Assembly (NCBI GenBank): GCA_002633005.1
Contig: NMRA01000123.1
Span: 770,656 to 834,655, forward strand
Length of the DNA: 64,000 bases
Source: Phoronis australis
Lineage: Eukaryota > Animalia > Phoronida
Direction of reading: 5' to 3'
Shown here: positions 1 to 33,115 of the stretch, one piece after another
How the letters are laid out: each line of letters begins with the position of its first letter
Numbering within the stretch: the stretch's first letter is position 1
The notes under the pieces: generated by a model
Seen by the model: the letters and a program-made list of their open reading frames with translations, nothing else
What the model was told of the DNA's origin: nothing
Database searches by the model: none
Position numbers and translations under genes: made by a program

Positions 1-770
1 TACACAGGACTTACATGCTTTTGCTCGCTTTTGTGAAAAATCATCGTGCACTCGATAAAAAACAAAACATGGATTGAGACACCTGAGTTTTTGTCTGACC
101 ACCATCACATTGCAGCCTAAGAATCAAGGCGATGTGAAACTTGATGCCTAGTCATTTCACAATAGTTTTCTTAACAATGGGAAAAACAATAATTCAGTGT
201 TGAATTTATCTTTTCTTATCGACATTTTAATGATGTCTAGAATATTTTGCTAGCAGCAAGCTTTAATCCTCTCACACCCTAGTTGACTGTAACACAAGAA
301 GTACTAAAGGGTGCAACCAAGGATAACACATTACGTGTATGGTTTGTCCAAAATAGATCCATGTTACCAAGTACTATCTTGTTATCAACTAGTGGTGGAA
401 ATCCCTCCACTTTGAACAAATGAGCCAAAGAAAGGTTTTGTCGACTCATTAAATCCTGTTAAAGATCACATGTCTACAACAACCCACCACTCGCGCAGCA
501 AAAAACGCCAACAAAAACAATATAACTTACAGCAAGCTGTACTGAATTCCTAACGAGGTATAATTGGAAACAGACCAGTGACTTTACCTTGTAACCAAAG
601 AGTGACTTTAACATGAAAACCAGTATCACCACAGAAGTCATCAAACACACAAGAACAAGATAACCCACACCACAGACCATAGGTATAAAAACATCAAAAC
701 AGTAATGAGAAATTCCACAAAGAAAACAGAACAAGAAAGAGAACAGAACTGAGGTAGAGTGCTTTTTCAC

Positions 771-3700
771 CTTCTCCACATCTGGTAAAGACACTGCAGT
801 GGTGTCCATAGTCGCCTCACATCTCTCCCCATTTCTTAGCACACCACCATCTGGTGAAGTAAGTTCCTGGTCAGGCGACGCGTCATCCGTTCCGCCGTTG
901 TCTCTCGAGCCTTCCTCACTGTCCCATGAATCGTCATCCATCTGCAACTGGAACCCCTTCTGTGGTTTTTGCACATCCACAGCTCCGCCATGATCTCCAC
1001 TTTCCTTTAATTCTTCCATTGCTTTTCTGGCATTGCCCCATTCATCGCTAGCCACTGCTTTAGCCTCAGTTTTATTCACTAGCTTTGTGTAAGTTTCCGA
1101 CAAGCCAGCAAAAACATCATCCTCGTCAAAGTCGTGCCCATCACCATCGTCAGCCATCGATTCCCCAGGCTTTTGCTCAGGCAGGTTTTCAACCTCAGAT
1201 TCTTCACTATCGAAATTTACAGAGTTGTCATTCTCGGGTTGCTTTTTGACACTGTCACCAGCAACAGGTGTTCTGTCATTGCCACCATCGTCACCATCAC
1301 CATGACCCTGTTCATCATCACTGTCGTCATCATACATGTGAGCACCATGGCCTTTACTAGCGCGGCTACTATCATTCTTGTTGCCTCCAATTGAGAATTC
1401 GCCGGCATCACTGTCCCAACCATCACTTTGGTCGTCACCACTGTCAACAGCATTTTCCTGCTAGTCAATAAGAGACATAAAGCAGGATAAACTAAGCGGA
1501 GTTCACTAATATTTACAGAAAGGTTCAGGACAGCAATAGCCACTAACCACTATACAACAGTACTGTACAATGTTTACAACATGCCCGGGGGATTCAATCA
1601 CATTATTAACAACACTGTCTTGTTACAAACAACACGCCAGACCACACATCAACCACAAAGCATTCACACACAATGCACATGGTGCATACATGTAAGTTAA
1701 GAGCACAATCTTAACACAGAACCAGGTTCATTGACTATAACACTACCGTATGTGGTGACACACCCAATTGGACAATGCGCACGCAGGAAACAGTGACTCA
1801 CCTTGTCAACCGCCTTTGAACTTGTATCCGGGAGGAGTGCATTCTCTACGTCGCTGTCCCAGTCATCAGACTATATTAAATAACCAGAAAACACCAAAAT
1901 TAGATAATCCACAAATCAAGCAATTATGCAATGTATAAACTGAAAGCAAGAACTCAAAGGTACTATGTAGAATAGGAGAACATTCAGAAATGGTAACCAT
2001 GCCATGTGAAATCCATTATTTTCAAGTCACAAGTTATCACAGAATATCTTTTAAGACCAATCTTAAATAACAAAAATGCACAGTGCCACGCACAAAAACA
2101 TTGTTCACATTCACAATGATCAGTTCAATAAGTGATAAACAGTGAATTTCAAAATCAAAGAACAAAACAACACATTCCAAAGAACAGATCAAGAATACCT
2201 GCAAAATAGAAATTACAAGATAATAGAAAATCCAGAAGTACTGAGTGACGCATAGAAGAAAACAGAAACAAAATTAATTTAAATTAAATACTAAAAGGTA
2301 GACTGGAAGCACACTTAACGCACAGAACGTTCTCAAAACAGATGTAGGACAGCTGGAAACAGGTGAACAATCAAGATGGACACAGTCAACAAGAAAGTCT
2401 GGAATTTAAAAAATCTAAACACAGAAAACAGCTCAGAAACATCACTCGCAGACAATATCAAACTTTACAAAGGAATCATCTCCGGCAAGAACAAAGAAAA
2501 TTCAATTTAAAAACAGGATACCAGGCAAAGCTCCACTTTCAAGTAAAATCCGAGACAAAATATTAAGTGAATGTTTCGAATGAATGATCTAAAACATCAA
2601 TCAGGCCAAACTGGTGCTAGGTTTCAATTATGTACTTTTTGAGAAGAGACGTAGTGATGAGAGGAGGCCAACCATGACTCGAAAATCTACTACTTGCCTT
2701 TGGAAATCGTTAATAATCAATTTTTGAAACAGACGCTGCTAAGTTGCAAGCCAATTTGTTAAAAAAATAAAGATACATTTGTGTAGCTATTGGAAAAACC
2801 ACTTCATTCAAAGTGATGCGGGTAGACCGTTCTTTTTGAAAGCGAGGTACATGATTGTACACATGGATTTTTTCTTCAAACAGTGAAGCATAGCTTTCAA
2901 ACTGAAAACCAGTCATGCTAATTTGGCCACATTTAATAGTGTTGCACATGTTCGGCTTTATATTAGACTTGAGAGCATAAACTTTGACCTCAGATTTGAC
3001 CAATAGCACAGTAGCTAGAGCTTTCCCTGCTTGCCAACAAGACACATCAACAGGTGATCACATCAAACTGCACACATCCCTGACCTTCTTGGGAGAACGG
3101 GCCTCAACCTCAGACTGGGGTGATAGGGGAGCAGGCAAAGGGGTGACGGTCTCAAGAGATTTGCCAAACTGAAAGCACAACAAACATCAAAACACCGTGA
3201 TATTTCACGTACACTACTACGGATTAAATGCTAGAATATGACGAGACTCTTAACTTCAGCAACTTATCAAAAATAAGTAAAACGTGGAACTGAAAGCTAT
3301 TTTGCAACACACAAGCAAATGCATATGGCTACTGAAGCTTGATGGAGAGAGTTTGAAGCAAGCTGCAATGGGAGACTCAAGGCTCACTATGTAGCACGGG
3401 TCCTTTTCCGAATGACTGAATAGAAAGTCGTTCACCTGCATGGGGGCACTTGTGAAATACGGTTCCAACATAAATAGTTGTAAATAGATTGCATTTGTTA
3501 AGTAGCAGTTGGTTCGCTAGCACTACTTTGTGATGTTGAAGCTCCTCTTTGCAAATAAGATCACAGGTGATGAATTAGTAGATTAAATTTTACTTTGCTC
3601 ACACTTACTAACATCGCATAACCTATGATTTAAGAAAATATATTTCAATCTTGAGAACAAGTAATTTATGATAAATTTTGTCCAACATCAATTCACTGTA

Positions 3701-6700
3701 ATTCTCATTTTTATACTTAATGTTTATAACAAACAAAAGCATTCTAGCTATTTGTAAAAATCACATGCCAGTGTCAACATTTCTGACCAGAGCCCCTAAC
3801 CCTGCATGTCTAACCTCTAGTGAGGGCTGCTGGGCTAGTGCTTCAGAATAGGCTTCAGCTAAGTTCTCATTTTCCTCGTCGTCTGAATCCCACTTGTCGC
3901 TGTCATCAGCGCCCTCTTCAGGCTGATCGGCAGACAATACATGGTACATTAAAACTACAGTAATGGTAGTCAGACAAGTCACCACAATGAAGGGTAGGGT
4001 AACAGGTGCTTATGAAATCAAGATTTCATTATTATACAGAACTTCATTGCTCAACATTTCAAAGAACTGACCAATTGCTAATAACAAAATATTAATTTGT
4101 AATTTCACTCGAGGCATTAGAATGAATAACAGGCTATTTAATTACCTTATAGATATATCTTATTTCTAACTTTGTACAGAATATAGAACAGCTCAAGTAG
4201 CGACACTAATTAGTACTCTTTCAAGAAAATATTTATCGTAATGTTAAAACTGTGCTAAAAGACTATAAAGATAACAGATAAGTAAGGTCATTAGTGCATT
4301 GAACTGATGAGTAACTACTCAGGAGAGACCCTAAGTGCACCCAAGTGATCGTCAATGGAGTGATAGAACATGAACAGTTTATGGCCAATATGGATAGTTT
4401 GAGTTCAGTACAAAGCTACCAGGCATAGGCGTCATAAGTAATACTCTGAGTACAACACACAAGCTTGCTAGTGCACATTGGACACAATCAGAGAAACACG
4501 TAGCACAAACAGGGTATTTAGAGCAAGAACACCTCACGGACGTCAGTTAAGTCTGTGAGCTGAAAAACACTTGCTGAGATGATAACTATTGAGAAAGAAA
4601 ATAAGACAAGCCGACAGAAAACCACCACCCTGGAAGAAAAGACAGAAATGCAAAAATGAGCGTGTTCTTAGAGATCATCTGCACACACACAAACACACAC
4701 ATACTACAGCTGTCACATAAAAGTCAAACCTCTTGGCCCACTGACGATCCTCGCTTCTTAGTCTCCACAGGTTTTGTAGCAGGTGGACTGCTTTCCTGCA
4801 AACGAATTCAACATTTCATGCGTCAAAAACGCGTCATAAAAGATACAACAGATTCCATGGTCATTCCTATGTATTCTCCACCTAGGAACCATTCCACCTG
4901 AGCCGTGGGTGAGAAATCTGGTCCCTAGGAGTCTATGGAGTTTGGTCAACAAATATCAATGGAATATTTTCAGCAAGAATGTTTAGAGTGTAGGGACCCA
5001 ATAAAAGAAGCAGTTTAGGTGTTTGCTGGTCAAAAACTGGACTCTAGAAAATTGTAAAAGCAGAGGCGAGGCCATGGAACCGTTTCCACCCACTGAAATA
5101 GAAGTGTGACAAACAAGATTCATTTTTGCAGTCTGTACTTTGGTAGTATCAACAAATGTCACCATAACCTGTAATGTTCAGCAGTGTCATTGCTTCACAC
5201 CTTTCGCAAATGTGATTTTTGTGAGTTAGCACAAAATATCCAAGAAAAATAATCACTAGAACAAGATCCCTAAACATTAGCTACAACATAGCATTGTAGG
5301 GCAAGAAGTCAAAGTGATGGGAGGACTACCATGCAGCATAATACCAGACTTTACCTTATTCCTCAATTGATCAAAAATTGATTTAATATAATAAAATTCA
5401 ATTATCATGCTGGTACAATTCAATACATCAAACACATTTCAACTAGACGAAACTTGTGAACAGCTCTGAACAATAGGCTCAAAGATGCACATTCTCTATA
5501 AAGAATTTAGTGAGGCTGCTAATAATTAAGTGAAAGAAAGTAAACAGGAAAAGAATTCATAGCTAGGGTACGTTGCATAGACCCAAGAACATAGCGAAAA
5601 ACGTAGGCTCACAAGACATCGCCATCCATTACAAGCAAAGCACGAGCACAACAGTTTTTCTAGCGAGTGCCTTGGATCTATGGAACGCAGTCCCATTCAA
5701 AACTTCAAAAAAGAATGACATGTGCCAGCATAAACAGCAACATAATTAAAGATGGTTCGAACAAAGAAAGAAAGAAATAGAAAGCCGACGTACACAACAA
5801 AAAACAGAACACAATGGAATGCAACTTTAACCTCAACTAACGAAGATGCCGCAACAAAGAACAAAACCCAATAAAGCAAACATTGCCATGTTTCAACAAC
5901 GATGTCATCACCTTGTGGCTGCTGCAGACGTCGAAATCTTCACGGAAGACGAGGGACGTCGACGAGACCATGGTGTAGGAGCTCTCGGTCTCACTCACAG
6001 GCTGGAGGCAGTAATTGGGGATGGAGAAGGCAGAGGGGGAATCAGACCTGTCTGACTTGGAAAACAGTCCCTCCTCCATCCAGCAAAGTTCTCGCTCAGA
6101 TGGTGAGCTGGAGCTAGATAAGCGACTATCATGAGAGGGGACAACACCTCCGTTAGGTCCTTCCCCTTTTTGGGAGGATGACCCGGGTGCGTTGTTGTTG
6201 ACTGATGATGACGAAATTGAACTGGATGAAGCACTGGCTGACTTATGATTGTAGTACGTCGTGGTTTCGTTTTGAATAAAGATGGTGCAAGTTTCCAAAA
6301 CCTCTGAACATTTGCTGCTTCCTATGGACGGAAGAAGTAAGGATTCGTCAAGCGCTAGGTGAGAGGAAGCAAAGTCTCTGGACTCGTCTCCTTGTAATGG
6401 ACTAGCAACCTTGGTTGGACTACTGCTGGACAAAGACGATGTAGGAGAAACAGGGGAAACAATAGTCATCTGATGGATCTTAATCTGTTGCTGCCCTTGA
6501 AGGATTTCAAAGGCAGTCTCTGAAGACTTAGACGTGGACAAATTATCACTCACACCACTGTCTGATGGATTACCTGCACCGCCTTCATCTCCAAGACTAC
6601 AGGCAACTTGAAGGAATGGGCCCACTTCCAGCGCACTGGCAATTTCTGACTCACGGTTTTTGTCCATAATAAGGCCTGATGTACATTCATTTATGAGCTC

Positions 6701-9700
6701 TGGGGAACACAAAGACTTCCTTGCATCACTGTGGGAGCTCCTCGTAGTTCTCTTAAAGTCTATGTTATGATCAGACGATGTATAATCAGCAATGCCAAGC
6801 ATCTGCGACGGGGGATAAGTGTTTTCCATCAACTGTCTGAATACTTCGTTTTTCATTTCTACCTTGTGCAACACTTTGCCGGGGAGGCGGTGACAGCCTG
6901 CATCTACTTCACTATACTGTGCAGAACCGGACACCCTTACTGCAGCGGTACCCACATCTTCATCATCCATCGCAATAGCAAAACTTCTAGATGAGCTAGA
7001 AGAATTTGAGAACGGCCTGGAAGTATCAAAAACAAGGGGAGAGCTGGAGTTTTTGTAAGCTGATGAGATGTCTTCGTCTAGTGACTCCTGTACAATCTTT
7101 CCATTAGAAGCATTACCATCAGGGCTATCATCTACTGTGTAGGTTCTTGAATCGACCAGGCCAGGTGATAGAACAACAGTCTTGGGACTTCGTGCCTTGT
7201 CATCACTACACTCGATATACTTTTCCAAGGTTCTTGGTAGGCTTATTCTCGAATCAACAACATTCTTCGCAACACTTGAAACTGGACATAGTGAGCACGA
7301 AACACTGTATAGAGGATCAAGTGGCAACGCATCTTGCACTTTTGAACTCGAACCAACCTTATCACTCATATGGTTACTGCTATGTATTGTTTGCACGTGT
7401 TCAGAAGGTGTTTCGTCTTGCCTATGTTCACAACAAACATCCAAGCTGCTGGTAGAAACACCTTGCAGCTTTTGCGGTGTCTTACCAGAAGTAACATATT
7501 TCACAGCTACTTCCTGGACTTTTTCAGAATGTAAAGTTGTACAATCTTCCTTAGAAGAGACAAAGTCACTTCCACTGTCAGTTACACTGATTGAAGGTAA
7601 TGGTTTAAAAACGCCATTATCACCAACAACATTTGAAATGGGGTGAAGCTCACATATACCTTCTGCGTGTCCAACATTAACATGGAACTGATCAGATTTC
7701 AAGTTCGCCGATACTAAATCTCCTGATATTGATTCACTTATGCTCTCGTTTAAAGGTGAAACGGTACCCTTGGTTGTCGAATCTACAGTTCCGTCAGAGA
7801 ACTGAGACTTTACGCCACACCTTTCATATATTATTTCTGAAGCTGATTTCAAAATGTATTCAGCAAGAGAGGAACCCTGTTCTTGTACATCTGTATCATC
7901 TACTGGCCGTCGCTGAGTAGTCATCAGCCATTCCATTATGTGGTTCACTTGTAGTGAAACATCAGAAATGACAAGCTCCGTGTCTGTTCCAAATAGGTCT
8001 CCCATTTTCAAACTTCTGAATACCTGAACTACAAATCTTTGCACAACATCCCTAATTGACGCTTGAGCTCCAAAGGATAGGGAAGGATCACAGTGGGCAG
8101 AAGATTCAGTGGGCTTGCTACTGATGTCTCTAGAGGTACTTTGTAATGACGTGATTGACTTAACATCAGATGTTTTCAAATCCCCGATTCTAAGCAGTGT
8201 CAGACTAACAGCATCAGAGAAGCTGTCTGACTGTTGATCAAAGGCAGACGTTGGGCTTGGATGTAAGCCTGCCTGCACACAGGCATTGAAGATAGCCATG
8301 TGAACAAGATTGGACAACTCTGAGGATATTTCCTTTTTGAACACAGTCGGAATTGACGTCTCAGCGTTACCCAAGGTCGCCAGATTTCTGAGCACATCTG
8401 AGGTCAGTGAGGATATACTCTGGTCCAGAGCCTGGAGGTTCTTAGAGACGTTGCAGCTTAGTTCATAAGAGGTGTCGTTGCCAGATGGGGCCTTTCCGTC
8501 GATGAAGGACTCATTGGGTGATATTGGTGACGTGCTTTGTAGATGTTCCTCGTGAACAGGCTGTGCCAGCAATGATTTAGTGAGGGACTGATGAGAACAT
8601 GCTTCTTTTGGCTTGTTCAGCAAGTTTCTCCAGAAATCAAATGCATATTGGGTTGTCGACGTCATCAAAACTTCATTTTCATTTGGGCTACATTCAAACA
8701 GTGGCGGTGGTTCCTGAAATTGAGACAGTGTTGGGTCTTCTGTACAAAACGCACCCACATTTTCCGTAAAATGCTCTGTTAAACAAGGCATTCGAGCTGG
8801 TAAAGATGGAGTTTTGTCATCATAAAGAGTGATGTTCGTTGGCAATGGTGGAGGAGGCACTGATGGTGGAGGAAGAGATTTACTGGACGAACTTTGTTCA
8901 GATGGAGTTTCCTCATGATCATAAACTGCAGTTGGCAGGGATGGAGGATTCATAGCTGGAGGAGAAAGTGATTTAGTTAAAAAAATTTTGTCAATTTCAC
9001 CATAGGTCTCCAAATGTACAGCAGGAAGACACTCGCCAGCTAGCCATAAGCTAGATTCTTCTGGTGCACATGGCATGTCAATCTCCAAGGTATCCTTTTC
9101 CAAGACTTCTTTACAACAACCCAAAGATGAAGTGTCACTTTGCGTCTTATCGTGTGAGTGAGCAAGGCGGGAATTTTTTTCTACCCGTGCACTCTCTATA
9201 CAATGACAAGGTAAGCAGGGTGGGGGAGGCAGGTCTTCATGGCATATTGGTACAGTTAAAAGACTTACAGGTGGTGATGGCAGAGACGGCGGTGATGGTG
9301 ACTCAGTACACACCAAGGTATGATCTGAGTTAATTTCAAATACCTTAACACTTTCTACCAATGGTAAAATGTTATCCAAGGATACAACCTCCTTGACCTC
9401 AACAGCCTGTACTTCGCTAACACCAGCAAAAGGGGTGAAACTGGCACCCTGTAGTAGAGGCTCAGCAGAGGCAGGAGGAGCAGGAAGAGACGAACTATCA
9501 GATGGCACCTCCAACACTTCGATCACTTCATCCACAGGTGGCACTGGTGGTGAAGGAGAATGGGATACAGAAACATCAAGCACCAAATCATTTTCGTCCA
9601 TTTGTAACATGTGACAAGCAGCAACCGGAGAAGAGATTTTAGATTCTTGACTAGAAGAGCTGTTGTCACAGGAATCATCCTTACTTGAAGAAAAAATATC

Positions 9701-12700
9701 AGAAGGGGGTGGTGGGAGCTCATCAGAGGCTAGTTGCCAGCACAGTTCTTCTGGAAGTGCTGGTAATGGAAGGTCGACTTCTTCCGATCTGTTCCCGTCC
9801 ATATCTTCTTCCACCAGCAATGGTGGCAGAGGTGGCCACAGCGCACTCGAGTCCACAAGAAAACAACCTGCTTCACAAGGAGGAGAGGGCAGGCTCCCAC
9901 CAGAGAGAGATTCAACGGCAGAACTCATAGTGGGAGGTGATGGAAGTGACTCGCTTGAACTACTGCAAACTTCACACGCCTTATATAAGCCACGGCAGAG
10001 AATTGGAGCCGACTCACTCTGTTTTTCAGGAGGTGGGAACCAAGATGGTCTGTTCTGTGGAGCCAATATGTGATCGGATGCAGTGTCGAAAACACCAACA
10101 TACCTAGATCGGTTACCAATGGCCAAAGGCGGGGAAATTTGCATGCATTCCGTTGCCTTGGCTTCGAATAGGCCAAGAAGTCGTTTGACACCAGAAGGTT
10201 TTTCAGTTTGAGTGACAAACTCACCTGAAGACAATTTTGGAGGAGACGGGAAGGAATCGTTCGACCAAGACTGTGTTATTTGAACATTATCTAAATGTGA
10301 ACCTTCGGCAGAGTGTGACAGTGCACTTAAACGATTCTTGACAAGGACACTGATTTTGGAGGTAAGCTCTTGAGAGCTGCTCGCAGTAGTATCAACACTG
10401 TTTACACCTCCATCCAAACAAACAATCTGATTTCCATGGAAAGATATTTCATTCAACACAGTCATTACAATATTTACAATTTTGGAAACATCCTCAGACA
10501 TTTGCTTACTAGACGAAACTTCAATTTCAGGATCTGCATTCTGCTTCAGCTCACGGCACACTTTGGATATTACTGACCTAAGAACAGATGTCGTGGCAAA
10601 AGCATCAGTTGTGGAGAAACCACTATCAGAATTTCCCTGCAAAGCAGAGGCTTGCAGCAGTGGAGTAATGGCATCAGTGACAGCGCTTACAACTTCTCCT
10701 ATGTCAAAATCTCTCCACATGAACTTAGGGTGGTCACCATCAGCCTCTGTACTGTCCGTGACAGGAAGTTTGGGAAAGCATTCTTCCTTTGAAGATTCTC
10801 GATTGGTGTCTTCAGATGAAGGTCCTCCGCTTGCAATAACTAAACACGCCGGACTCTCGTCCGAAGTCGAGAAATATCCTTTATTTGAGAAAGCCCATTC
10901 TTCCTTGTGGCATATGGCTGGAGCATGCGACCCTGATGAAGAATCACTGCAGCCACTTGTACATTTTGGTGGTGCAACACCAACACTAGTCAGGCTCCGG
11001 GAAGGTGAATCAAGAAGTGCATCACCTGAACTGCAAGCACTCATGGAGGTGACCAAGGAATATGATGACAAGGAGTTGGACTCAAAGCACTGCTCTCTAT
11101 CAGACGTCTGTCTGTCTAATTCAACGTCGATGCGTGGAGCACCACTTGGATGCTCACAACTTGGTACGGTCCTCTCGACATTCTCTCCCATCTCAACTGT
11201 GCTGGCCATTGAAGACAAAGAAATGGCATTGGTTGCGAAGTCTTCTGCCTTGCCAGAGGTTTTGAGATTGTTACTACCACACGCAGAAAAATAAGAAGTA
11301 CTGGCATCTGACAAAGGTGTCCTCTCAATGCACACTTCTGATACAGCACTTATTTGGTGGAGAGGCCGAGTCCAACTCTTCAGCCAATCCGGTGAGCTCT
11401 GAACATCTTCACGTAAGTCCTCATGCAAAGCAACACTTGCTGTGCAGGAGGTAATTGGCTGAAGGCCATATTGAGAGGTGCCGTCAATCAGGGAAAGCAT
11501 TGCAGACTCTACGTCCTCAGCAGCCTTGGTAAGTGAAGAGCTTTCATCTGATCCATCGCTGGCAGTGATATATGAACATGAAGAGGATGCCACGTCTTCT
11601 GTCATGTTTTGAGGTAAAGAACAAGCCACTTTGATTTCTTCAAAGCTCTTCAACACAGTGTATCCCTCAGCATATCGCGTCCTGTCATCTTTGTCATTCT
11701 TGCTGGGCAGAGCTTTGGTGTTTTCAGCACTTTTAGCCTCCCTCTCTCGTAGAATAGAACAAAGAGAACGATCGTGATTTTCCGATACAACATCAGTACT
11801 TTCCGACTGGAGCAAGTCAGTGACATGATGTTTGTATTCATCTGGTAGGTTTTCCTCAATGAAGGCTTCAACACTTTCTGACTGGAGCAGACTTTGATCT
11901 TGCCTTCCATAGGACAAAGCTTTGTGACTAGGCTCTGTTTCCTCTGGAGGAACTTCAATGCTTTCTGATTGAAGTAGGTTATTGTCGCTTTCATCTGATG
12001 ATGACACCTGGTCATCTGCCATAAGATGCCTTGATACACAATCAGCACTTTCAGACTGCAGCAAACTATGTCCCAACTTTTCGTAAACACAATCGTACAC
12101 TTCAGACACATGCCCGATACTTTCTGAAATAAGAGCATTGTCGTCATCACAATCAGATGGAGATGCTTCATCTTTAGTACTAAGACCACCACATAAAATT
12201 GGAGTACTTTCAGATTGTATCAAATGTCTATTGTATTCAATACTCTGCTTTTCTACAACACATGTGGCAAGATGGTTGTGGAGAGTACAACACCCATCTA
12301 CAGGACTGTCAGTGCCGGGTGACCTGTGTTCAGAAAAAATCTTTTCACATTCCACAGAGTTAAGAACTTTCTGAGGGTATGGGGAATTACCTTTCTCATA
12401 GTTCGGCAGAATCTCTCCTGGAATTTCGTCAAGCTCATGGCTAGTCAAATGAATCTGGGCAGGTAAATCAAGACAAGAATGGCATGATTTAGGTGACAAA
12501 GCATCACGGCACCTACTGGCATCTATTGACGACACACTGACACGCAATCTTCTCTCTTCTCTGCACAGAGACAAAGCATCAGCACAAATAGACAGGTCGC
12601 AACAGCTGCTGTTAGAAAATTCAGACAAATCACGTGACCGTTCTTCGTGTGATTCTATTGCCGATGTCTCACTCTTATATCTCTTCACGGGCCTGAGTAC

Positions 12701-15700
12701 AGCGGTGCCATCTGGAGATGTCAGCTTCGTCAACCCAAGACGAATTTTCGCAATTTCCAGAGCCTCTGGTGGAATAGCGGGCAACTTTCTCCTTACTCTA
12801 ATTCTCTTTCGAGGAATTACGTTGTCAGAGTCACTTGAGAAGGAGTGAGGAGAACAAGTCCTTGGTGAACGGGACTCACCCGAGGCACTGTTCTGCTGCA
12901 GCCCACAATTTGTATCATCTGGCACACAAGACTGAAGATAAGCATGGTTAACACCCGTATCCTCAGACAACCCTTTCCTCAAGGAGATCGGAGGAAATTC
13001 AGATTCAGGATCCCGTTGAAGACGGCCGGTTGCCGACATTGCCACAACCTCTGCCACACAGTCAGCAGTGACAAGATCGCAATCACTGGTGTCCATTGGC
13101 TGCAGCAAGTGTCTTGACCACTCATGAACATTGGTACGAGAGGTCTTAGCGCTGGCCCCTCGAGACCGTTCACTGTGATCGCTCAGGCTCGCGGCGTCAC
13201 GGGCTGTTTCACACAGGGAAATTTCGGGTGTGGACAAGTACGCCAGCATATCACTGTCTGGCTCCTGTGTAAACTTGGTCTTTGCTAGTCTTTCTAAAGT
13301 TTGGTTAAGTTTTGGGTACTGGTAGTGAATGAAAGAAGAGTTGACCGACCTCTGAACAGAGGGATCTACAGAAGGAGTGTCCAAAGCTACATTCATGTAC
13401 GTGCAGTCTTCACTAAGGAAGTGTCGACGAGGAACTAAAGACTTTGCTCTATCTAAAGCAGCAGATGAGGGCACGCTGGTTGTATCTATACAGCTACTAT
13501 CAGAACTGGAACCAGCTAAACAGAAGAAGGCATGCATAGGAGAGTCAGAGTGGGGAAGTGTTGCAAGTCGGGCATGATAGCTCACCTCCGATTTGCCGTC
13601 AAGCGGGTCCTGCTCCTCATCAAAAGTAGAATCAAAGTCGGACTGAAATCAAACAAAGCAACTGGTGTGGGTGCGGAAAAGAGAAAGACGGAAAGGACAA
13701 GCAAAACGCAAACAAAAACAATAAGTGAGGTGTACGCACAACACAAAAGCTCACACACAAAACAAAATGTAATACACTGACACAAAGTTCATGAAATTCT
13801 ACACTCTAAGATACGGACAAAATGATGAGGGTGCCTATCAATCATCAAGCATCAATGTAAGCATTGCACAGCGTATCTTAAGTAGCTGGAAATCCAGCTT
13901 TTGTAAAAAATGACTTAAGATCCAGGCCATTTACTACGCAGTTATAAAACTGATTTCAACTTGATCCTTACTTGGGTTCGAAGTGATTTTTGAGCTTGGG
14001 AAAAACTACCGGCTCATTTTGCACCGCACATAAAGTGACCAGCCGGGTCAAATCAACTCATTAAACCTAATGTCAATAACTTAGCCACTGTCAGTTGATT
14101 CAAAGAACAGAAATCATTTTTAATCTGATAAAGGAACAAGTCGAAACTCGTTTAGATTTATACTAGTGAACAGCCAGAATCAGAAGGCATTTTCACACAG
14201 CACGTCACGTATATAGAATGTCAATATGTACCTCTTCCTGCACAACAGAGAACTTAAGCTCTGGCTGTTGGTCTTCAATAGTGGAGTCGAGTGGTGAGTC
14301 GTCCCAGCTGTCCACACGTCGCCGTGGAGATGATTCGCTAATATCGGGGTCGCTGACCTCGGAGATGTCGCTCATGCCCAGGTCAGCCATTATTTCTGGT
14401 GCAAGAAAAAAACAAAGCAGCCTGCTCCAAAATTTATCACACTTGATTGAACTTCAAAATATGTTGGCGTTGACAAAATGGTCATGGTTAGATTTAGTGG
14501 GTGAGTATTAAAGTCATGATAACAGTGCTGAAGCACAATAACGTGCTAGTTTGAGTGAGAAAGCAACCAACATTACAAGCAAAACACTTGCATCCATTGA
14601 TATTATGAATCATCACACTTAACACATAAAAACTAATTTGCCAGACATTGGAACACTCCCAAACTGAGCTAAAAGGTCACATATTTTGATTCATTCTTAT
14701 ACAGGAGAGCTTTAGGCATGAACACTAATGTGGTGACAGTATCATAAGCAATTTGTCTTTGGCAAACTCAGATAAATTAAAGCTCATGAAAAATACGCTT
14801 TCATGATTTTCTTAACCTGCACACAAAAACTGTTAAGAACAGTAGGGTTGATTTCATGATGGGTTCTCACAAAAGGCTGAGAATGAAACAGAACTTACTA
14901 GCTTGCTTGTCTTTAGGCAAAGATCCTGTACTTTTCATGGTGCTTGAGAGTGGCGGGGTCTCTGCTGCCTCCTACAAACACGAGACCTTAGAGCCACCCT
15001 GGTCTCAATATTCCTCAAGTATGATGCAACTATCATATCAGATAACAATCTTTTTTGTTTCAAAATATCATGAATAACAACCCAACTCTTTTACGAACAA
15101 ATGTTTCAGCGGATGACTTTGTTAGATCACTATTCCATCAGTACAACGCGGGTTGCTGAACTATATGGATGATCATGAAAGAATAAATTTTGGAGTTAAG
15201 TCATTCACAAAAACACACCGTAATTCACAAAAACCTGTGCAGTATTGAAATAATCAGTTTTGAATCGAGCCACACTTTAGCCTCAGGTAGAAATTTGCAT
15301 GAAACATTTGACAACTTCAGCAGCGATGCTACTACATTCAAAACCTCCAAAAGTCTTTGAAAATACAAATTTCTACTTGACACAAGAAAATTACACAATT
15401 GAAGGTTTTCTAACAGGGACGCCATGACATTTTGAAACTTCAACAACATTCAAGTATGCAATGAACTCCAGGATTTTTATAACAGTGTCACAACAATTCA
15501 TTCAGAAGAAGTATTCATTAAAGTAACCTATCATCTCAACTGATCGCTGTAACTGCAGTCTCAGTAGTCAGTTCTTTCTTAATTGAGAACACCTCTTTCA
15601 ATCGGTACTGCAAAGTTCGTACAGCATACCAAGGCCACCCAGTAGCCACGTACCTTTCTTTGATCTGGTTTGACCTTCTTTGCTGTTCCCGTGACGCTTG

Positions 15701-18700
15701 CTGCACCAGGTGCCATGGCGTCACTCTCTTCCTCTGACTACAATAAAAAAAACAATAACGACATTCTCTCAAAGTTGCCAAAGCTGAAAACAAATGTCAC
15801 AAATTCACCATGGGAGACAACTAGGTGACACTCACTAAACACTTCCAGTAACTTCAAACCTTCCTTTTACCATGTGTGTGTCTAGTATGTTCCTCCATCA
15901 ACACAAAGAAAAATAGTCAGTTGTTTTGGGACTGGCAAACAAAGAATGTCATTAAAAATTGAAACAGATCAAGTAGCAAAGGACTGATTGAGGTAAGAAT
16001 AATGAATTCGTAAAGCTGTTGAGGAGAAATCACGGTAGCATGGTTAAGACTAGTATGCTACTAAAATATCTTACTACAAGCCTGCGACAAATATGGAGCT
16101 TATTATCATAATGAAAAATGGCAATACTTTGTTTTGAAACTTGTTTCAAAAATATGCTAATTATTTGTGTTTGTAGATGAAAAACACAATGGACCATCAG
16201 CATGGACACAAGAACATAGCAGGAACAGTAAGCTAAGACAAAAAATATTGTTTTTTAAATCATTCATGCTTTTGATATAAGTACTTCTCGGCTGCTTTCC
16301 ATGAACACAACAATTTCGCAGGTAAAGCTAGTGTTCACATGCTTTGCATGAAATCTACGACAATATCTTAAGAAGAGTTAATTCCTGATTTTGTATTTTC
16401 ACGAGGTTCTTGTAACTAAACAACACAATCTTGGCCAGGTCTAAACGCACCGAGCAGGCATTCTGAAAACCAACACTGGTACACAATTTCTGCAGGTATG
16501 TGGCTTGTGTTTGCAGGGGCAGTGTTTAATCATTGGCCTACCCTGACAAGAGATTCTCAGAGGAAACATGACAAACCCTTACATCAAAATCAGACTCTTC
16601 TTCTTCCTCTTCAACTAGATTACTCTTCTTCTGTGACGTGACCTTCGCAGGGGTCAGTGCGCTGCTCTTTTTGATTGGCTCCGGCGACGGTGCCTCATTA
16701 TCAGACCACGTGCTCGGCTCATTGGATTGCACAGATTGCTCAGACACTAGCGACCTCTCTGAGCGGGTTGAGTCGGCTTTCTTGACTGGCTGAGGTAGTC
16801 TGGACTTGCCCTTGAGGCTGAGGTTAGAGTCTGACCGCTGCACACTACTGTTTGAGTCATTGCGTTTCACAGCTTTGGACTTGTCCGCAGAGGGCTTAGG
16901 AATCTTCGTTGCCCTGTCGGTGCTTCTAGCAGTGTCTAACCAAAATTATAAGTAAAATCTTAGTACCAGTACAAAATTAAGTGTACATATCAAGGTTACA
17001 TAATAGGATCCTGAAGAATGTCTAAATTAGCCCACCTTTGGAACATATCTCACAATAGGCTCAAGTGATTCATATGGACCTTTCAGACACTGTCCTTTTA
17101 GGAATAAGCTTAAAAACTTTGTTAGAAGGATTATCCAAAATCGTTTCTACAAAAAATTTCGAAAGTTGCATAAAACGAACTGTTAATACAGAAAATTATA
17201 GCAGCGCTTTGAGAGACTTTATCTTAGAAATTTAGATCAAACTGAAATTGGGTCATGTTATTGAGGTCATTATTTTGGCCTGCACATAGCTTAATTTCTT
17301 TTTGCTAGATTATATTGATGAAAGACATGGTCATGTGACCCAAATTGTCAAAGTTTAGTATTAAGTCAAAAATTCCAGACATTCTACTTTCAGAAAATAT
17401 GAAAAGTCATTGACTCAGTTCAATTGACTTGTCAATAAGGTCCTGCATAACATTTCAGTACGAAAATGATAAAGCAATAGTTGTGGTCTGTTTCATGTGA
17501 AGTGACTCGCACTCCTACTAGGTTTAGTCCTGTATAATCATTACCTCATTATTGCCAAGAAATAATGCATATTACAAATTTTCTGGATAATTAACGATGA
17601 CTAGTTTCAGTTTATTCTTTTGCTAAACTCAATTTCATTCACCTGAAATAGTTATGTTGAGCTTAAGACCAAACTTTAAACTTCTGTTTAAAGATTTACG
17701 TCACATCCAAAAACTCAACGAATGAAAAGGAGTTCCGTTCAAACAACACCTACCTGACTCGTCGTCTGAAGGTTTTAGCAGCTTCGACAGATTCAATTTG
17801 GGCACTTGTTTCTGAAAGCACATTGCAACACATCAAATTACGAATCTTCAAAATTGTATTAGTAAACCCCAAGGCATTTTAGGGAGAAGCAGATGATAGC
17901 ACATAGAATGTTATTGTTGCCTTAACAAACTGCTCCATACGTCTTTCATCTTATTTTGAAGTCGACATCGCACGACAAAAACGCATCGTTGCTGCATTTT
18001 ATACATTGAGGATTTAGCATTTAGTTAATCACGTGATAATTAAGCAACACGTCTCACCCTCTTCAGTCACATGACTTCCATTTAAAATGCTACAGTGTCA
18101 GTCCTATGTACATGATTGACAATAACAACATGTGCTGTGTGACTCCTGACTGACAACACTTAACTAACAAAAAGTGCTGTGTGACCTCTGACTGACAACA
18201 CTTAACTATCACTATCGTAAATCTTAAAATTTAAAATAAGTAATTGTTTTGATTTCAGACTGCTAATCGTAATACAGCTTAAGCTTAAGCTTGTTCCTTG
18301 AAAACGATAAGAAATGAACGCTGGACTTGGACAGAACTGACCATTTCATGCTGATTACGATCAATATTGGCGCATGACAAACCAACCATCAAATGTCAAG
18401 CAATAACGAGCTGTCGGCTCTTCCTAACATCACAAACTGCCTCATCTGAGTAAAAAACAAGTTGAAACCATTTTTATATGGCAAACATATGTCAAAGCAT
18501 CCTTAACAGACATCAAGTTTACAAAAACTTGAAATGCAAATGTGCACATAATCACACTAAGACATCTTTGAAATAGAAAAAAAGGAAAAGTCTGTAAGAA
18601 AAATACAAAGAGTGAAACACAGACAGTGCCAAACCCATAAACCAGTGAATGTAACTCAAACAATACAACATCAAAGGAAAGAGAGCATCACGACTCTCAA

Positions 18701-21700
18701 ATTCCCAAGTGTTCTTGAACGCTATGACAGTCACTTAAGAACAAAACGACAGTTTCAATTAAAGCTGCACTTTGCTCGGATTCCCTGTCACTTCAAATAC
18801 ACTTTGAGTTTTTAACTCGAGAGGCAAACCCTACGGCTGATTTGCAATAGACGCAGAACAGCTGGTCGTTGTTGTGACAGGTAACTGACCTATTTTTGAA
18901 TGTAAGTCCCTGCGCACCATTTTTGAACTTCAGGGTTGGCCAACCCCATTGAAACTGATAGTTTCCTGGCGTGTTTCTTGACCTGTTCAGGGTTTCTTCT
19001 TAGTAAGAAAAAGAAGTACTGTCACAGTAAGAAAAATTTAGAGACCACTTTTATAAGAGTAAACGATCCAATTTTATTTTCGTTTTTTTAGCCAGCTGAA
19101 TTGAATAAAATGCACCTTTATGTACACAGTTAAGAACACGGCGAGAAAAAACCGAAAAGTGTGATGTGAAAAGTGAACGCAAATCAAGAAAGAACGCTTG
19201 CACACGGACGGATACCTTCGTGGGGGGTGGAGAACTCTGCGGAACCTCGTCGTTGTCGCTCAAATCAGCTGGTTTCTTTTGCTGAGATTGGCAAACAATA
19301 TGGAGGGTGATGGAACATGTAACATTTCACAACTGGGCAATGCAAGCAATGGTACACAGGCACGGAAGACGAGAACGGCCAAGGCTTCAGGTTATGCAGG
19401 ACTCGCGAAAAGTGTCCTAATTTAGCTAAATTCAGCTGAGAAACTATCGGATTTATACGAAACTTTCAGGTGCTATGTTTAATGCACTGTTCGCCAAAAT
19501 ATTGTTACGGGTTTAAAAACGCACGAGGAGTAAACAAATAGGACTGTTGCATTTGGAAAATTAAATGATTATTAATTTTAATTTTAAATCTGTAACAGCC
19601 AGCGTTTTTGAGAAGTCATCTTGACCATTTTATCTAACAAAATTTGGTCGCGTTGCTGATACCAGTGTTTACTATGAATATACCATTCTTTCTGCTAAAT
19701 CTTTCAAAAAAGGTCACATGACCCAATCAACAGTAGACAGGGGTGAAGACAAATATCAAATTCTACAGGCTTTCTACTTTCAGTACTTTCCACGAGTTGA
19801 GTTCTAGTTTTGTCAATATTTGGTTGAATGTGCAGACTAGTTGGTAAGATCGTACATAACATGAATACGTCGATACCGAGAGGCTTGTTTAACTCTATGT
19901 ACAACCTTAGCCCAATCTAGAAGATAGTATCCAAGAACTAGCAGCAAAATGACATTACTCGGACACCACAATAATTCTAATACAATACGGATACTACAAG
20001 ACAGAGCCCAATTAATAGGGCTCCTGGAACGCTTATTATGGCAACACCAGGACAAACCAATCAATTTAATCCACGGATAATTTGGCACACTTATGCATCA
20101 GCAACGAAGGAGGTCATCAACACGATTCAATTTTCAAATAAGAATACCTTATTTTTGTTCTTGTCAAGTGGTAGATTGTCCTCCTCCTCAGTATCACCCC
20201 ATGAGTCATTCCCTTGTCCTGCTCCTCCAGCACCTGAGATCTTGCTGGCTGTATTATCTGACCAGTCGTCATCTCCTGCGACATTAAGGTCAAGTGAAAC
20301 ACTGAACTGGTCACACTGAACGAAAACTAAAACAACCATGCTGCACAGATCTGCAGTAGAATATCACTTCATAGACAGGACAATTGGAACGACAGAAAAT
20401 AAAATAAACATGATAACCAATGAAGTGTGCTCACAAACATCCTACCCAGCAAAAACTGTAAGGCAAGGGGTGTGTTCTGTACTATGCAACACTTGCCCCA
20501 CGAAATCTCAGCTAATGCAACGAATTTAATGAGTTAACTAATTTAAAAAAAGGTATTTTCTAATAATTCTACATTCCAGCCTCCCTGACAAATGACATCA
20601 GTAGCGCCCATTTTTCTAGTCTACACTTCACTGGCCATTCACCCGCATAGTGAGAGGTCTTGAGTCATCTTGTCAAACTCACAAGAGGGAACGTGCCCCT
20701 GATATTAGACTAACCAAGAAGTTTTACGGTAACACGAGACCATAAAAAGGGTGAAAAGAAAGATCGCCAAATGAACATAACACGCCTTGCTTGTATACAT
20801 TAATTGCTTTTAGATTCGAAACTTTCACACTTTTCTGGATGGCGATTACAGCACTAAACCCGGCCAGGTGCTCATGCACATGCCCAGGGCTGTTTTCTAC
20901 AAGAAGCATTCTATGCACAAAATATCAAATAGAGTGTCACACAATTGAACTTGACCAAGCTTTGGCAAATTCAGCAATTAAGTACCCAACCATAGGCAGT
21001 TGTCATTTTCAGTAAAGGTCTAGAATTGGAATTTCTGAGAGCACATGGCAGTCCAATGGTCACCAGTGCTATACTACTGCACTATCTTCAGCAATACCTG
21101 CATCGACAGCGGGCGCTCCAAACCCACCAGCAGCCTGCGATGATCCCTTGTGCACAGGGGTAGATTTGTTCGAGCCTGTCTGTTTGGGCCCTCGGCCCGT
21201 CCTCATGTCATAGTCCGCTATCAGCTGTGAGCACCCATGTTGACCCTTCATTATAGCACAGTCGTCAGCTGTCCACCCTGTAGAAAGAATAAATATTTTA
21301 GTAAACATTTTCTCCAAAATTCCTCGGTTTGCAGTTATGTAGGGCCTTATCAACATGTCTGTTCAGTAAAATCTCACAAAAGAACAGCACTCATCAATCA
21401 CATGATCAAATTTATCAAAACTGCTGTTACTGTTTCCTAAAACATCAATTCGTTTCCTTTTTATGCAACTTTAAAATAATACTTTCCATGGAAATCATGA
21501 TAGCCCCTCATGCAAAAGTGGAATTAAACAATTCCAAATAGCCACAGTCGGCCATTTTTATAGAGTCCTACGTACCCTTAAGTTCAACACTACTGAAGAT
21601 TCTGCGGACAGACCACGCAGTCACCTGTCTCAGCAATGCACTGTGGGACGCTGTGATTTCGAAATTAAACCTTGCAAAAGCTGTGTAATCAGAATCAAGA

Positions 21701-24700
21701 GCACTTGATTCAACACAGTGTTCCCATACAACGCATTTAGTATTTCAAAATTATTAACAAAATCTGGTATACAACTGTCATTCACGTGTACTTCATACCT
21801 TTCATGTCTTTGAAGGATGTGTCTGCTTTGAACTGTAGCAAAAGCTTCACCAATCCCATGTCACCATCTTCGCAGGCCTGCATGAGGGGGGTCCTGGAAG
21901 CGACATAAACGCAGGAAATTACGCTATATATCCTCCACCAGTTCAAGAACAGCTGTTTTCCACGATCTCAATAAGCATCTTTTGTGAAATTTCTTAACCG
22001 TGTGTCACGTGCCAGTAAATTATCTCTAATCGTTAAAATACAACTACTTGATTGTTTAACAACCTCGGTTATTTTTCTCAAATTCTTTTTCGATCTCATC
22101 TGACACATTATTATAGAGCCCTCTAAAAATCACTGAGCTGATCTGAGCTATTGTCTGTTAAGCCCTTTAACCAACCACATTCAGAATTGCCATCAACTTC
22201 CATCCTACAATACCTTCTAGTCAATAGCCACGCCAACTATTAATCTTTTGTCATTCAGAAACCACCAGAATCAGCATCAATACGTATGGGCATAATTTCC
22301 AAAATTTACAAAACATGCGAAACGTTCAAGATGTCTTCACTTCTGTGATAAAAATCCAAAGAAATGATAGTATACTAAGTACTCCGTGGCCAATTACGCT
22401 CCCCACCTCGAGTTATTATCTTGAGCGTTAACATTGGCGCCCTCTTCCAACAATAACTGGCACATATCTTGTTGTCGTTCAGCAGCTGCGATGTGCAGAG
22501 GTGTACGCCCTTCCTGTTGAAAAATCAATTACATCAGGGATTAGAGACATATTTTTTCGAAAGACAATGGCAAAAGTTTAAATTAATATAAAACACAGAC
22601 GACAGAAAATCATTGAAAGCAAATTGGTTCAGAATACTAAATGCTTTACGAGACAGTGTCAGCGAGCAGAAGACAAATGGCATAGAACGTGAAACTGACT
22701 ACTGAACCGTGTAACACATTTCCCTAATGCACCTATGGATAGCTACATGAACACAGAGGACCAAGAATCAAAGTCCTCTTGTAAAGCTTCCGCATTACAC
22801 GGTTCCCACGCTGACGAACATACTTCCTTATTCATAAACACGGCAGTGAGGTCCAACAAACTCTGTTCACACCAGCTCATAAGTTCATGCCAAGCCTCAC
22901 AAACCCAGCTCGTCAACTGCCAGACATGGTGCCGGACTGACAACACAACCCCTCGCGCACAGTTCACTGACTCACAAAGTCTCGCTCAGACTATCAAACA
23001 CAGTGCTCAGACTGCTATCTACATTGTTGGGTGGTCAGTGAGCAGTGCCTGTGAGTCAGTAGCGTCGTTTTCAGCTGTGTAAATCATGTTTTGTTACAGT
23101 ATCAGGTTTGAAGGTGAGTGAGATGTTTGTGAGTCAGATAACCGAGTACATGGAGTCCACGAGTCGTGCTTGTAAGTGAGAAATTACATTCATGAGTTCA
23201 ACAGCCATGTTGTCTCCACACCTTGACTTCTTTAGGAAATTTTCCACAAGCTCATACCATCTCGTCATGTCACATAAAGTTCTGCATGAAAGCTATTTTC
23301 TTCCGTGCCCCTTTTCCACAAAAAGTGGAGACCACGATGTAGCACCGTCTAAGATGCAGTAACATTGGTTTACCCCGACAAAAAGGCATTGACCTACCTT
23401 GTTCTTGACATCAATCTTGGACCCACTTGACACCAGTATGCTGACTATGTCATAGAGGTTGTCCGAGGTGGCGTAGTGTAAACTGCAGTTGCCCAACTTG
23501 TCCACTGCGTTGGCGTCAGCACGGTGCTCCAACAGGAGTTTAACACAGTCCTCCTGGTGGCACTGGACAGCCTACAGAGATACACACAGGGGGGAATAAA
23601 TAGCAATGGCAAGTATGAAAGTTAAACATTTACAGCGTGGCAAAATCTCACCAATTTTGGACAAAATAATGGCTGCTAGTCGGCTATATTGAGCAAGACT
23701 TTAACGTCGGTAATACTTTTTCAGTGTGGTGCAAGTAAGTTGACACAGCCCAGCTGATGACACTGGACAGTCTACACAATGTTGTTGAACTGCACTGCAT
23801 TGTAGGTTACCAGCAGTCTTTTAGTGCTGGAAAACCGTGTTCTCACCACAAAAGTCATGATCATTGAAATCCTAATTATGAACATTTTCAAAATTCAGGT
23901 CTTAATTTGAGCTGAAAGAAAACTCTAAGACCAAACTTGTGTCGAAATATCACGCATGAGCAACTGTGTTATATTTGCTCAGAAGCAGTGCACAAAATAA
24001 TAATGATTTTGGAAACGACATAGTCAACTTTCACCAAAGTCATCAAGAGATGACTGTATGCATGTGTTCAAACTTAAAGGGGTTTAACAAGTGCACGAGT
24101 TATGGTGCACTATAAACTCTAAGGCTGAAATTAAAGTGAAAGTCATTTCTGGTGACTGAAGTGAGATCTTAGCCATCTCACCCACCATGTCGGTGGTGAG
24201 GCGGCGCAAGATAGTACACGTTGGAGTCTAAATGAAACACATGGAAGAGACAAATGAAGGTGGAGGAAACTCTGGCCTAGAAATCAACTGCCAAACTTGC
24301 GAGGCAGTTTATACAAACGGAAACTTCATAAAAATATTGACAATTATCAAACGTCCATTAGACCCATTTTTGAACATCAATGAAGCCTTGTAATCGTGTG
24401 AAAGGTCAGTTGCTGGTTTGGCGAAGCCATGTTATCGACCAATCAGAAAAACTGCATCAACATCCTTATGCAAAACTTCGTAAGTAAGTATGTAACCACC
24501 GTTGTTCATAGTGACTTAGCATAGAGCAAGATTAGGATATGAAATCACAAATATATACACAATTTACACCAAGTGAGAATTTTTGCTCAGGTAGAACCCT
24601 GTGGTGGTACCTATGCTATGGAACTACACGTAGCATTTATCTGGTGCTACTTATCTTTTATGAAAAAAACATGAAACTAAATAGAAGTTCACATGATTCT

Positions 24701-30419: not shown

Positions 30420-30800
30420 GCTTACTCATATGTCGGTCAACATCAGCATTTACATTGACAACGCCGACCCACGGACGAAATGTCAAATCCAAATCGCCAG
30501 TCCAGCTGCGATATCGAGTGAGAAACGAAGGAAACTGTCACAGGTTGGAGTTCAAGACGAGCTTTGAGGCACAGTATTAGACAGATCATAACATATCACC
30601 AAAATTCAAATCCATTCGGATCTGAAACCATATTTAAATGACCCAACAAACTTTCAAAATCAATTTCAAGCGTCGAACCTCGATGTCGGAACCGGAAGTT
30701 TTTAATACTGGAGATAAATATCTTGTTTCATTCTGAAGCGGATGTGCAAAACACTAGCTCTGTGCATAAGTTTGTTTACTGCTTGTCTTTACCGGGTTAG
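30420..30800. promoter_or_regulatory. Putative bidirectional promoter region shared by the ANKRD26-like gene and ZCRB1
   Basis: Locally CpG-richer sequence with the ETS/GABP motif CCGGAAGT at 30692-30699. A minus-strand donor (TGA|GTAAG, ~30425) suits an ANKRD26 5'UTR exon and a plus-strand GTTAGT (~30796) suits a ZCRB1 5'UTR exon. The ZCRB1 ATG exon is preceded by acceptors at 33786 and 33842. Confidence 0.4.
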
Positions 30801-32914: not shown

Positions 32915-33115
32915 ACTAGGCAGAATTGGATGGTAACTAGGTGGTGGGGCAGAATGGTTGGTGACTAGGTGATGGGCAGAATGGATGGTGACTAGGTGAC
33001 GGGCAGAATGGTTGGTAACTAGGTGGCGGGACGGAGTGGATGGTGGCTAGGTGATGGGGCAAAAATGATGGTGACTGGGTGACGGGCAGAATGGTTGGTA
33101 ACTAGGTGGCGGAAT
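32915..33115. repeat. G-rich minisatellite, ~27-bp unit, ~7 copies
   Basis: Consensus ACTAGGTGACGGGCAGAATGGTTGGT(A/G) repeated in tandem with variation. Confidence 0.85.

Follow-up and report, generated by a model that had tools for sequence, protein, structure and literature searches.

Can a 57-nucleotide (nt) linker exon of an ankyrin-repeat gene also be read as an exon of 7.7 kb? The question is raised by a 64,000-nt stretch of the genome of the phoronid Phoronis australis (contig NMRA01000123.1, positions 770,656 to 834,655; hereafter the window, numbered from its first base). An earlier note, made from the letters alone, described here an ANKRD26-like gene whose 14th coding exon (13642-13586) ends in a donor and stays open beyond it, up to a second donor at 5912, and it proposed that one acceptor serves a short and a giant isoform. 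RNA reads establish beyond reasonable doubt that the 7.7-kb interval is a real spliced coding exon, and the giant form is the major form in the two expressing runs, both of which come from one study.

The giant exon and its host gene

The exons on which this result turns are:

5912..13642, minus strand: giant form of coding exon 14; 7,731 nt or 2,577 codons, with phase 0 at each end; from the open reading frame (ORF) and RNA
13586..13642, minus strand: short form of exon 14; 57 nt, proximal donor GAG/GTGAGC; use suggested by sequence and phase
4730..4795, minus strand: exon 15, of 66 nt and phase 0; a minor alternative exon that the main giant form leaves out
1802..1870, minus strand: exon 18; 69 nt; acceptor of the giant exon as observed in RNA joints

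On the minus strand no stop interrupts the frame between 13648 and 5837, which spans 2,603 amino acids (aa) stop to stop and leaves 2,582 further open codons past 13586 in the frame of exon 14. The remaining five frames contain 70-252 stops across the exon, and the log10 probability of a stop-free frame, given the base composition, is about -61. The donors at 13586 (GAG/GTGAGC) and 5912 (AAG/GTGATG) are both phase 0 and lie 7,674 nt (2,558 codons) apart. The coordinates and number of exon 14, the length of its open frame and the spacing of its two donors, all claimed in the earlier note, were thus borne out by the sequence, the ORF and a 19-exon gene model.

Four RNA runs carrying the same species label (X1-X4) were aligned to window positions 1-20000. 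About 18-19% of each raw-read run was analysed, and a joint was listed when it had at least 3 reads from at least 2 starts. In X1 and X2, coverage across 13585-5912 was present, even and on the expected (sense) strand only. Depth over 6004-13340 was 6.8-14.7 in X1 and 5.7-11.3 in X2 in 11 of 11 fully exonic bins, or about 5 reads per kilobase per million reads; intron-dominated bins within 1-5336 had depths of 0.06-0.9 in 11 of 12 values, the remaining value (3.67) being a stack of same-start reads. The upstream joint 14232>13642 was supported by 10 and 9 reads (X1 and X2) and the downstream joint 5912>1870 by 10 and 12. Listed joints connect exons 9-10, 10-11, 11-12, 12-13 and 13-14. Splicing at both ends together with coverage shows this interval to be an internal coding exon within its host gene, and an untranscribed ORF, one way in which the earlier proposal could have failed, is not what the reads describe.

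The downstream partner differs from the one that had been proposed. The earlier note named 5912 as a donor, which 22 reads confirm, and predicted the junctions 13586>4795 and 5912>4795, neither of which is among the listed joints; 5912 is joined to 1870 instead, and 4795 is skipped. Joints into 1870 come from 5912 in 22 of 27 reads (81%, 95% confidence interval 62-94%). The joint 4730>1870 has 2 and 3 reads, so exon 15 is used at a low level, with no upstream joint listed for it.

The complete model follows GT-AG rules through 19 exons from an ATG at 30239 to 771 on the minus strand, with these further parts:

21098..30239, minus strand: exons 1-6, predicted from sequence; they would encode an amphipathic N-terminus followed by ANKRD26/POTE-type ankyrin repeats
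14232..20275, minus strand: exons 7-13, a linker in the in-frame GT-AG model; exons 7-8 predicted only
3815..3922, minus strand: exon 16, predicted cassette; 108 nt, phase 0
3085..3168, minus strand: exon 17, predicted cassette; 84 nt, phase 0
771..1460, minus strand: exon 19; 690 nt, acidic linker with tandem NAGNAG acceptors; the transcript runs on outside the window

Each of the four exon combinations tried keeps an uninterrupted frame, of 963 and 899 aa when the extension is left out and of 3,435 and 3,521 aa when it is included. Exons 16 and 17 had intron-level depth and no listed joint. Both sites of the NAGNAG acceptor of exon 19 (1456-1460, minus strand) are used, by 4 and 6 reads versus 2 and 4, and reads leave exon 19 at 771 toward sequence outside the window, with 8 loose ends there.

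By its sequence, the host gene is of ANKRD26/POTE type and not a true ankyrin, as the earlier note had assigned it; bit scores and the length of the repeat array support this. A search with exon 1 found four relatives (Owenia, Elysia, Plakobranchus and Argonauta) among 259 candidates, and the Plakobranchus relative bears the name POTE ankyrin family member b. The modelled N-terminus scored 231-325 bits against these four, compared with at most 122 against 28 other ankyrin proteins, among them ankyrin-3 at about 110. Matches of this kind make it likely that the animal is a lophotrochozoan. Its first 16 residues are the same as those of the Owenia protein P0001. A basic-hydrophobic N-terminus (computed hydrophobic moment 1.25 for aa 1-11) precedes the repeats, exon 3 matches Pfam Ank, and the short N-terminal array, closest to ANKRD26/POTE-type proteins, stops near aa 260, where an acidic linker begins. 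The parts scanned, which were the giant exon and exons 10 and 19, contained neither ZU5-ZU5-UPA nor a death domain. Compared with metagenomes, exon 3 returned 33 loci at 30-68% identity across 19-58 residues, and none of the searches returned a vertebrate ANKRD26 sequence. The name ANKRD26 therefore draws on the POTE-named match, on the derivation of POTE from ANKRD26 (PMC7073761) and on the architecture of the family. The C-terminal coiled coil of the family would fall outside the window, the gene continuing past exon 19, and the assignment is to that extent provisional.

Across the host linker exons (771-20275, minus strand) there are seven acidic tryptophan motifs, such as DDWDS and DGWDS; three occur in P0004, the Argonauta hians relative, and none in the insert. 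They are similar to kinesin light-chain W-acidic motifs. Rfam gave no match in the window.

Alternative or constitutive use of the extension

A shorter form made through 13586 probably exists as well, which would make exon 14 an instance of alternative 5' splice-site choice. Several observations point this way: exon 15 is in use (5 reads), 13586 matches the U1 consensus better than 5912 (6/9 versus 5/9), the composition breaks between host linker and insert, and in X2 the flanking exons are deeper than the insert (12.4-13.2 versus 7.9).

Other observations weigh against a short form. No joint from 13586, including 13586>4795, was listed at the 3-read threshold and a depth near 10. In X1 the upstream exons (7.3) are not above the insert (9.8), and only the downstream depth is greater (17.6). 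Nine GT sites within the exon match U1 at 7/9 or better and no listed joint comes from any of them, so a good-looking donor proves little. With the 3-read threshold and less than one-fifth of each raw-read run analysed, however, a short form at 10-20% could escape.

The giant exon could instead be constitutive, with 13586 vestigial or cryptic and exon 15 an occasional cassette behind the giant exon (5912>4795>1870). The unlisted 13586 joint agrees with this, as do an inflow at 13642 (19 reads) that balances the outflow at 5912 (22 reads) and the better U1 matches that sit unused inside the exon. The joint 5912>4795 is likewise unlisted, however, the X2 flanks are about 1.6 times as deep as the insert, and the expressing samples are two only, from a single study. 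We regard constitutive use as unlikely, though it deserves serious attention.

The extension begins with an intron-like segment:

13516..13585, minus strand: intron-like start of the extension, read as coding; 70 nt running from GT through a pyrimidine tract to TTTAG, a cryptic phase-1 acceptor

The earlier note held this acceptor to be phase 1 and incompatible with exon 14, and this stands: removing 13585-13516 as an intron leads to a stop 9 codons on. The acceptor would fit the reading frame of exon 12, whose donor is phase 1; no joint into 13516 is among the listed RNA joints.

In X3 (11.0 million records) and X4 (contigs), reads fell on repeats only and none on the gene. Repeat-derived reads were comparable in number (162 in X3 versus 185 in X1 and 165 in X2 in the 90-95% class), which hints that X3 is a sample with the gene off; this comparison is by repeat reads without a housekeeping control and is not evidence of tissue specificity. 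In all four runs, short dispersed repeats at 17324-17450, 18443-18478 and 19455-19790 draw reads that align only in part, which produces false joints.

Composition, constraint and predicted helices of the insert

The insert consists of 17% Ser, 7% Pro and 3.2% Cys, and the host linker has 0.1% Cys. At the DNA level, T makes up 0.275 of the exon versus 0.384 of neighbouring introns. The insert is neither a tandem array nor an internal duplication, and contains only short, low-scoring tandem repeats.

Sequence differences between the RNA and the assembly gave a measure of constraint. Relative to the assembly, X1 and X2 show some 250 listed differences (the X1 figure), a divergence of about 2-3%. 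The 40 differences listed in detail (6654-11455) are all in the exon and all fixed in both samples, so the sequenced RNA must stem either from a population that has diverged from the assembled animal or from a closely related sister species. They comprise 16 synonymous, 24 replacement and 0 nonsense changes; no indel is listed in the exon, the single listed indel being intronic. The ratio of nonsynonymous to synonymous change (omega), which the earlier note had envisaged from related genomes, was calculated from these 40 differences: it comes to 0.47 without weighting (P 0.012) and, at the observed transition bias, to about 0.6 (up to 0.63; P 0.059), values that indicate weak constraint. These data fit a frame held open under weak purifying selection, and we consider the insert very probably translated. 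The weakness of that selection counts against this view, zero stops in 40 differences is not significant alone, and the support for coding lies at the DNA and RNA levels only.

Searches for relatives were negative. A word search with the whole exon (100 words over 2,577 aa, a weak probe) found no homolog among 7,968 candidates, and phmmer with aa 951-1960 found none in 1.84 billion representatives. In Pfam, six insert segments matched no family at E up to 10 and no mobile-element or viral domain, and viral and metagenome contig searches found no relative of the insert. A search for long ANKRD26 orthologs (3,213-5,000 aa) among 185 candidates returned 28 generic ankyrin proteins at up to 36% identity, which is weak evidence of absence. 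The insert is best read as what may be a lineage-specific, mostly disordered giant spacer or scaffold, within which the following elements stand out:

11798..12223, minus strand: L[LI]QSES motif in five copies (exon aa 474-615)
10319..10702, minus strand: helix cluster 1, amphipathic, with four helices predicted at aa 981-1108 from hydrophobic moment and low-confidence AlphaFold
8783..9946, minus strand: proline-rich tract; five LP[SP]PP motifs, 11-17% Pro
7820..8473, minus strand: helix cluster 2, amphipathic, with six helices predicted at aa 1724-1941 and weak AKAP3/AKAP4-like features

At most 1 in 2,000 shuffles was as extreme in its count of the L[LI]QSES motif, which was picked after inspection. 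The LP[SP]PP tract we take to hold candidate EVH1, SH3 or profilin sites. Proline-free windows with a moment of at least 1.5 numbered 8, versus 2.4 +/- 1.6 in 500 local shuffles (P 0.004). A 1-4-5-8-9-12 hydrophobic spacing, which we take to be that of A-kinase anchoring proteins (AKAPs), had 7 overlapping matches in 4 helices against 0.85 expected, and 0 of 2,000 shuffles reached 7. The predicted helices are also amphipathic and of the 14-18-residue length of AKAP sites. Single-sequence folds placed helices in just two zones of aa 951-1960. Such a length is what is described for AKAP binding sites (PMC13025221). For cluster 2, the four neighbours listed by the ESM Atlas include AKAP4 (0.80) and AKAP3 (0.77), ahead of or beside which stands an uncharacterised fish protein (0.81, 0.79).

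We judge it somewhat probable, from these predictions, that the helices are partner-binding sites; that the partner is a docking domain of the type found in protein kinase A regulatory subunits (PKA-R) is our leading guess, but a tentative one that we expect rather to fail. Much speaks against the kinase connection in particular. Both the helix pattern and the moment threshold were chosen after the sequence had been inspected, and both structure models are of low confidence (mean predicted local distance difference test scores 34.9 and 37.7). The Atlas scores are below 0.9 and recognition is low (1007); shuffled proteins attain such a level one-third of the time, and cluster 1 has no Atlas match. 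Pfam RII_binding_1 and AKAP_110 were not matched by the six insert segments at E up to 10. Comparison of the clusters with PDB sequences gave 0 and 4 matches, the best at E 0.057, which we judged to be chance.

The same helices could instead be degenerate talin-rod-type bundles or vinculin-binding helices, which would make the insert a cortical mechanical linker and not a kinase anchor, with no change to the splicing steps proposed here. Talin rod helices receive AKAP-like scores in predictors (PMC10990152), a proline-rich tract lies between the two clusters, and in the Argonauta ANKRD26-like protein P0004 the corresponding linker contains a segment of talin rod (E 5e-14 to talin-1). Yet neither cluster matches talin at E up to 10, and the insert compared with the talin-like part of P0004 gives a best E of 0.44, which leaves this explanation improbable. 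BLAST of the insert against the whole of P0004 gave a best E of 1.1. The talin segment of P0004, at about aa 666-781 between the ankyrin repeats and the coiled coil, is itself either an exon capture or a gene-model chimera.

The insert might also be tolerated filler, recently exonised, with no docking role and open only because stops would ruin the host protein. An omega near 0.6, the intron-like 5' end and the failure of phmmer (aa 951-1960) and the whole-exon word search to find a homolog are all compatible with this. Filler would not, however, be expected to carry helices and motifs above shuffle level or a base composition unlike that of neighbouring introns, and no tandem array or internal duplication accounts for 7.7 kb becoming stop-free. 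In addition, giant ankyrin exons also lose cross-phylum homology yet stay functional (PMC5135030). We consider filler quite unlikely.

Beyond the distal donor, the frame reads on into the intron:

5837..5911, minus strand: intronic read-through to a TAG stop; any retained or terminal form here would be a minor one

The earlier note listed other ways to read the ORF: as an alternative last exon that stops at 5837, as an independent nested gene, or as the ORF of a transposon or virus. These are very improbable and contradicted as the main form: there is some read-through past 5912 (bin 5337-6003 has a depth of 2.4-2.5, about twice what its 92 exonic bases account for) and one AATAAA/ATTAAA hexamer, at 5387, but 22 reads splice 5912>1870 and 19 splice 14232>13642, and no Pfam domain, viral or metagenome relative was matched.

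Proposed mechanism, parallels and neighbouring genes

The explanation that we favour, with somewhat better than even confidence in the whole, combines a giant spliced exon, a disordered spacer with docking helices and a likely shorter form. The spliceosome would skip 13586 and a number of internal donors that look stronger, and choose 5912, extending exon 14 to 7,731 nt; joined in frame to exon 18, this would add a 2,558-residue, likely mostly disordered spacer. The short form would run from 13586 through exon 15 to exon 18, with the long exon 14 and exon 15 as alternatives. By family analogy, the giant protein would retain an N-terminal membrane-binding ankyrin module and a C-terminal coiled coil for transition fibres, and the insert would lengthen this membrane-centriole tether and add docking sites, both proline-rich and helical, the helices perhaps serving PKA-type regulatory subunits.

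Human ANKRD26 binds membranes through an amphipathic N-terminus that carries five repeats, and it has a long coiled coil (bioRxiv 10.1101/2021.05.19.444897); its C-terminus suffices for transition-fibre targeting (PMC7198521). The Phoronis protein shares with human ANKRD26 and C. elegans ANKR-26 an amphipathic N-terminus, a short ankyrin array and then an acidic linker; unlike the human protein of 1,710 aa, its giant form has at least 3,435 aa within the window alone.

The closest parallel in size is with the giant ankyrins. Ankyrin-G (ANK3) has a giant exon of 7.8 kb and a shorter form made by in-frame splicing within the exon (PMC5422562), and bilaterian giant ankyrin exons have a mean of 8.1 kb, without cross-phylum homology (PMC5135030). 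The Phoronis exon resembles them in size (7.7 kb) and in its Ser/Glu-biased, fast-evolving insert, whereas its host is a short-repeat ANKRD26/POTE-type protein and the exon extends a small linker exon. Exon 18 of ninein, a 2.1-kb alternative exon, is cell-type-switched and adds partner-binding sites (PMC6429586); it too is a large exon in a centrosomal-type protein, but a regulated cassette where ours is a 7.7-kb 5' splice-site extension. The sperm-tail scaffolds AKAP3/AKAP4, the nearest named Atlas neighbours of cluster 2, likewise set 14-18-residue amphipathic helices in a low-complexity chain (PMC11506864, PMC13025221). In contrast, there is no sequence-level match to them, and the helices predicted here lie within an ankyrin-repeat protein. 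FSIP2 is a further sperm-tail scaffold of this architecture. Finally, ultra-long exons are shielded from cryptic splice sites by RBMX-family proteins (PMC11446547). The exon described here is comparable in being internal and very long and in leaving several of the splice sites within it unused. Another giant-exon case is skNAC.

We found no giant ANKRD26 exon or isoform among the top-ranked matches listed from the open-access literature, judged by their titles and the openings of their abstracts, and a 7.7-kb ANKRD26-like exon is apparently unreported. Giant exons have been seen as a true-ankyrin feature of single bilaterian origin (PMC5135030). An RNA-supported exon of like size in a separate ankyrin-repeat family constitutes a second, independent case and makes testable whether giant exons are selected for length as a tether, for docking motifs or for both. 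It also predicts that invertebrate ANKRD26 gene models may overlook long in-frame ORFs in the linker, and it offers a natural example of splicing that passes over at least nine strong-looking donors within a 7.7-kb exon. What limits the weight of the case is a single lineage, an insert without a homolog and a short form that we infer. At its most speculative, an independently evolved, cell-type-switched giant exon could convert an appendage protein that links membrane to centriole into a multi-site kinase-anchoring scaffold of more than 4,000 residues for sperm or other motile cilia. We think this unlikely; if true, it would parallel the giant ankyrins and would mark out the linker of ANKRD26 as a hot spot at which lophotrochozoans capture helical modules, such as the Argonauta talin segment and the Phoronis exon.

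The neighbouring features in the window are:

32940..33110: minisatellite-like array of 20-40-nt units, intronic or intergenic, seen by eye
33894..34004, plus strand: RRM-protein exon (Pfam RRM_1), head to head with the ANKRD26-like gene
35110..35345: minisatellite-like array of about 38-nt units, intronic or intergenic, seen by eye
38371..39138, plus strand: single-exon forkhead-domain ORF (PF00250, E 1e-26), whose translation has an X near its end
53001..53456, minus strand: caveolin-domain exon (PF01146, E 6e-26)

The RRM-protein exon is one that we take to be ZCRB1-like, and a promoter near 30700 is possibly shared by this gene and the ANKRD26-like gene.

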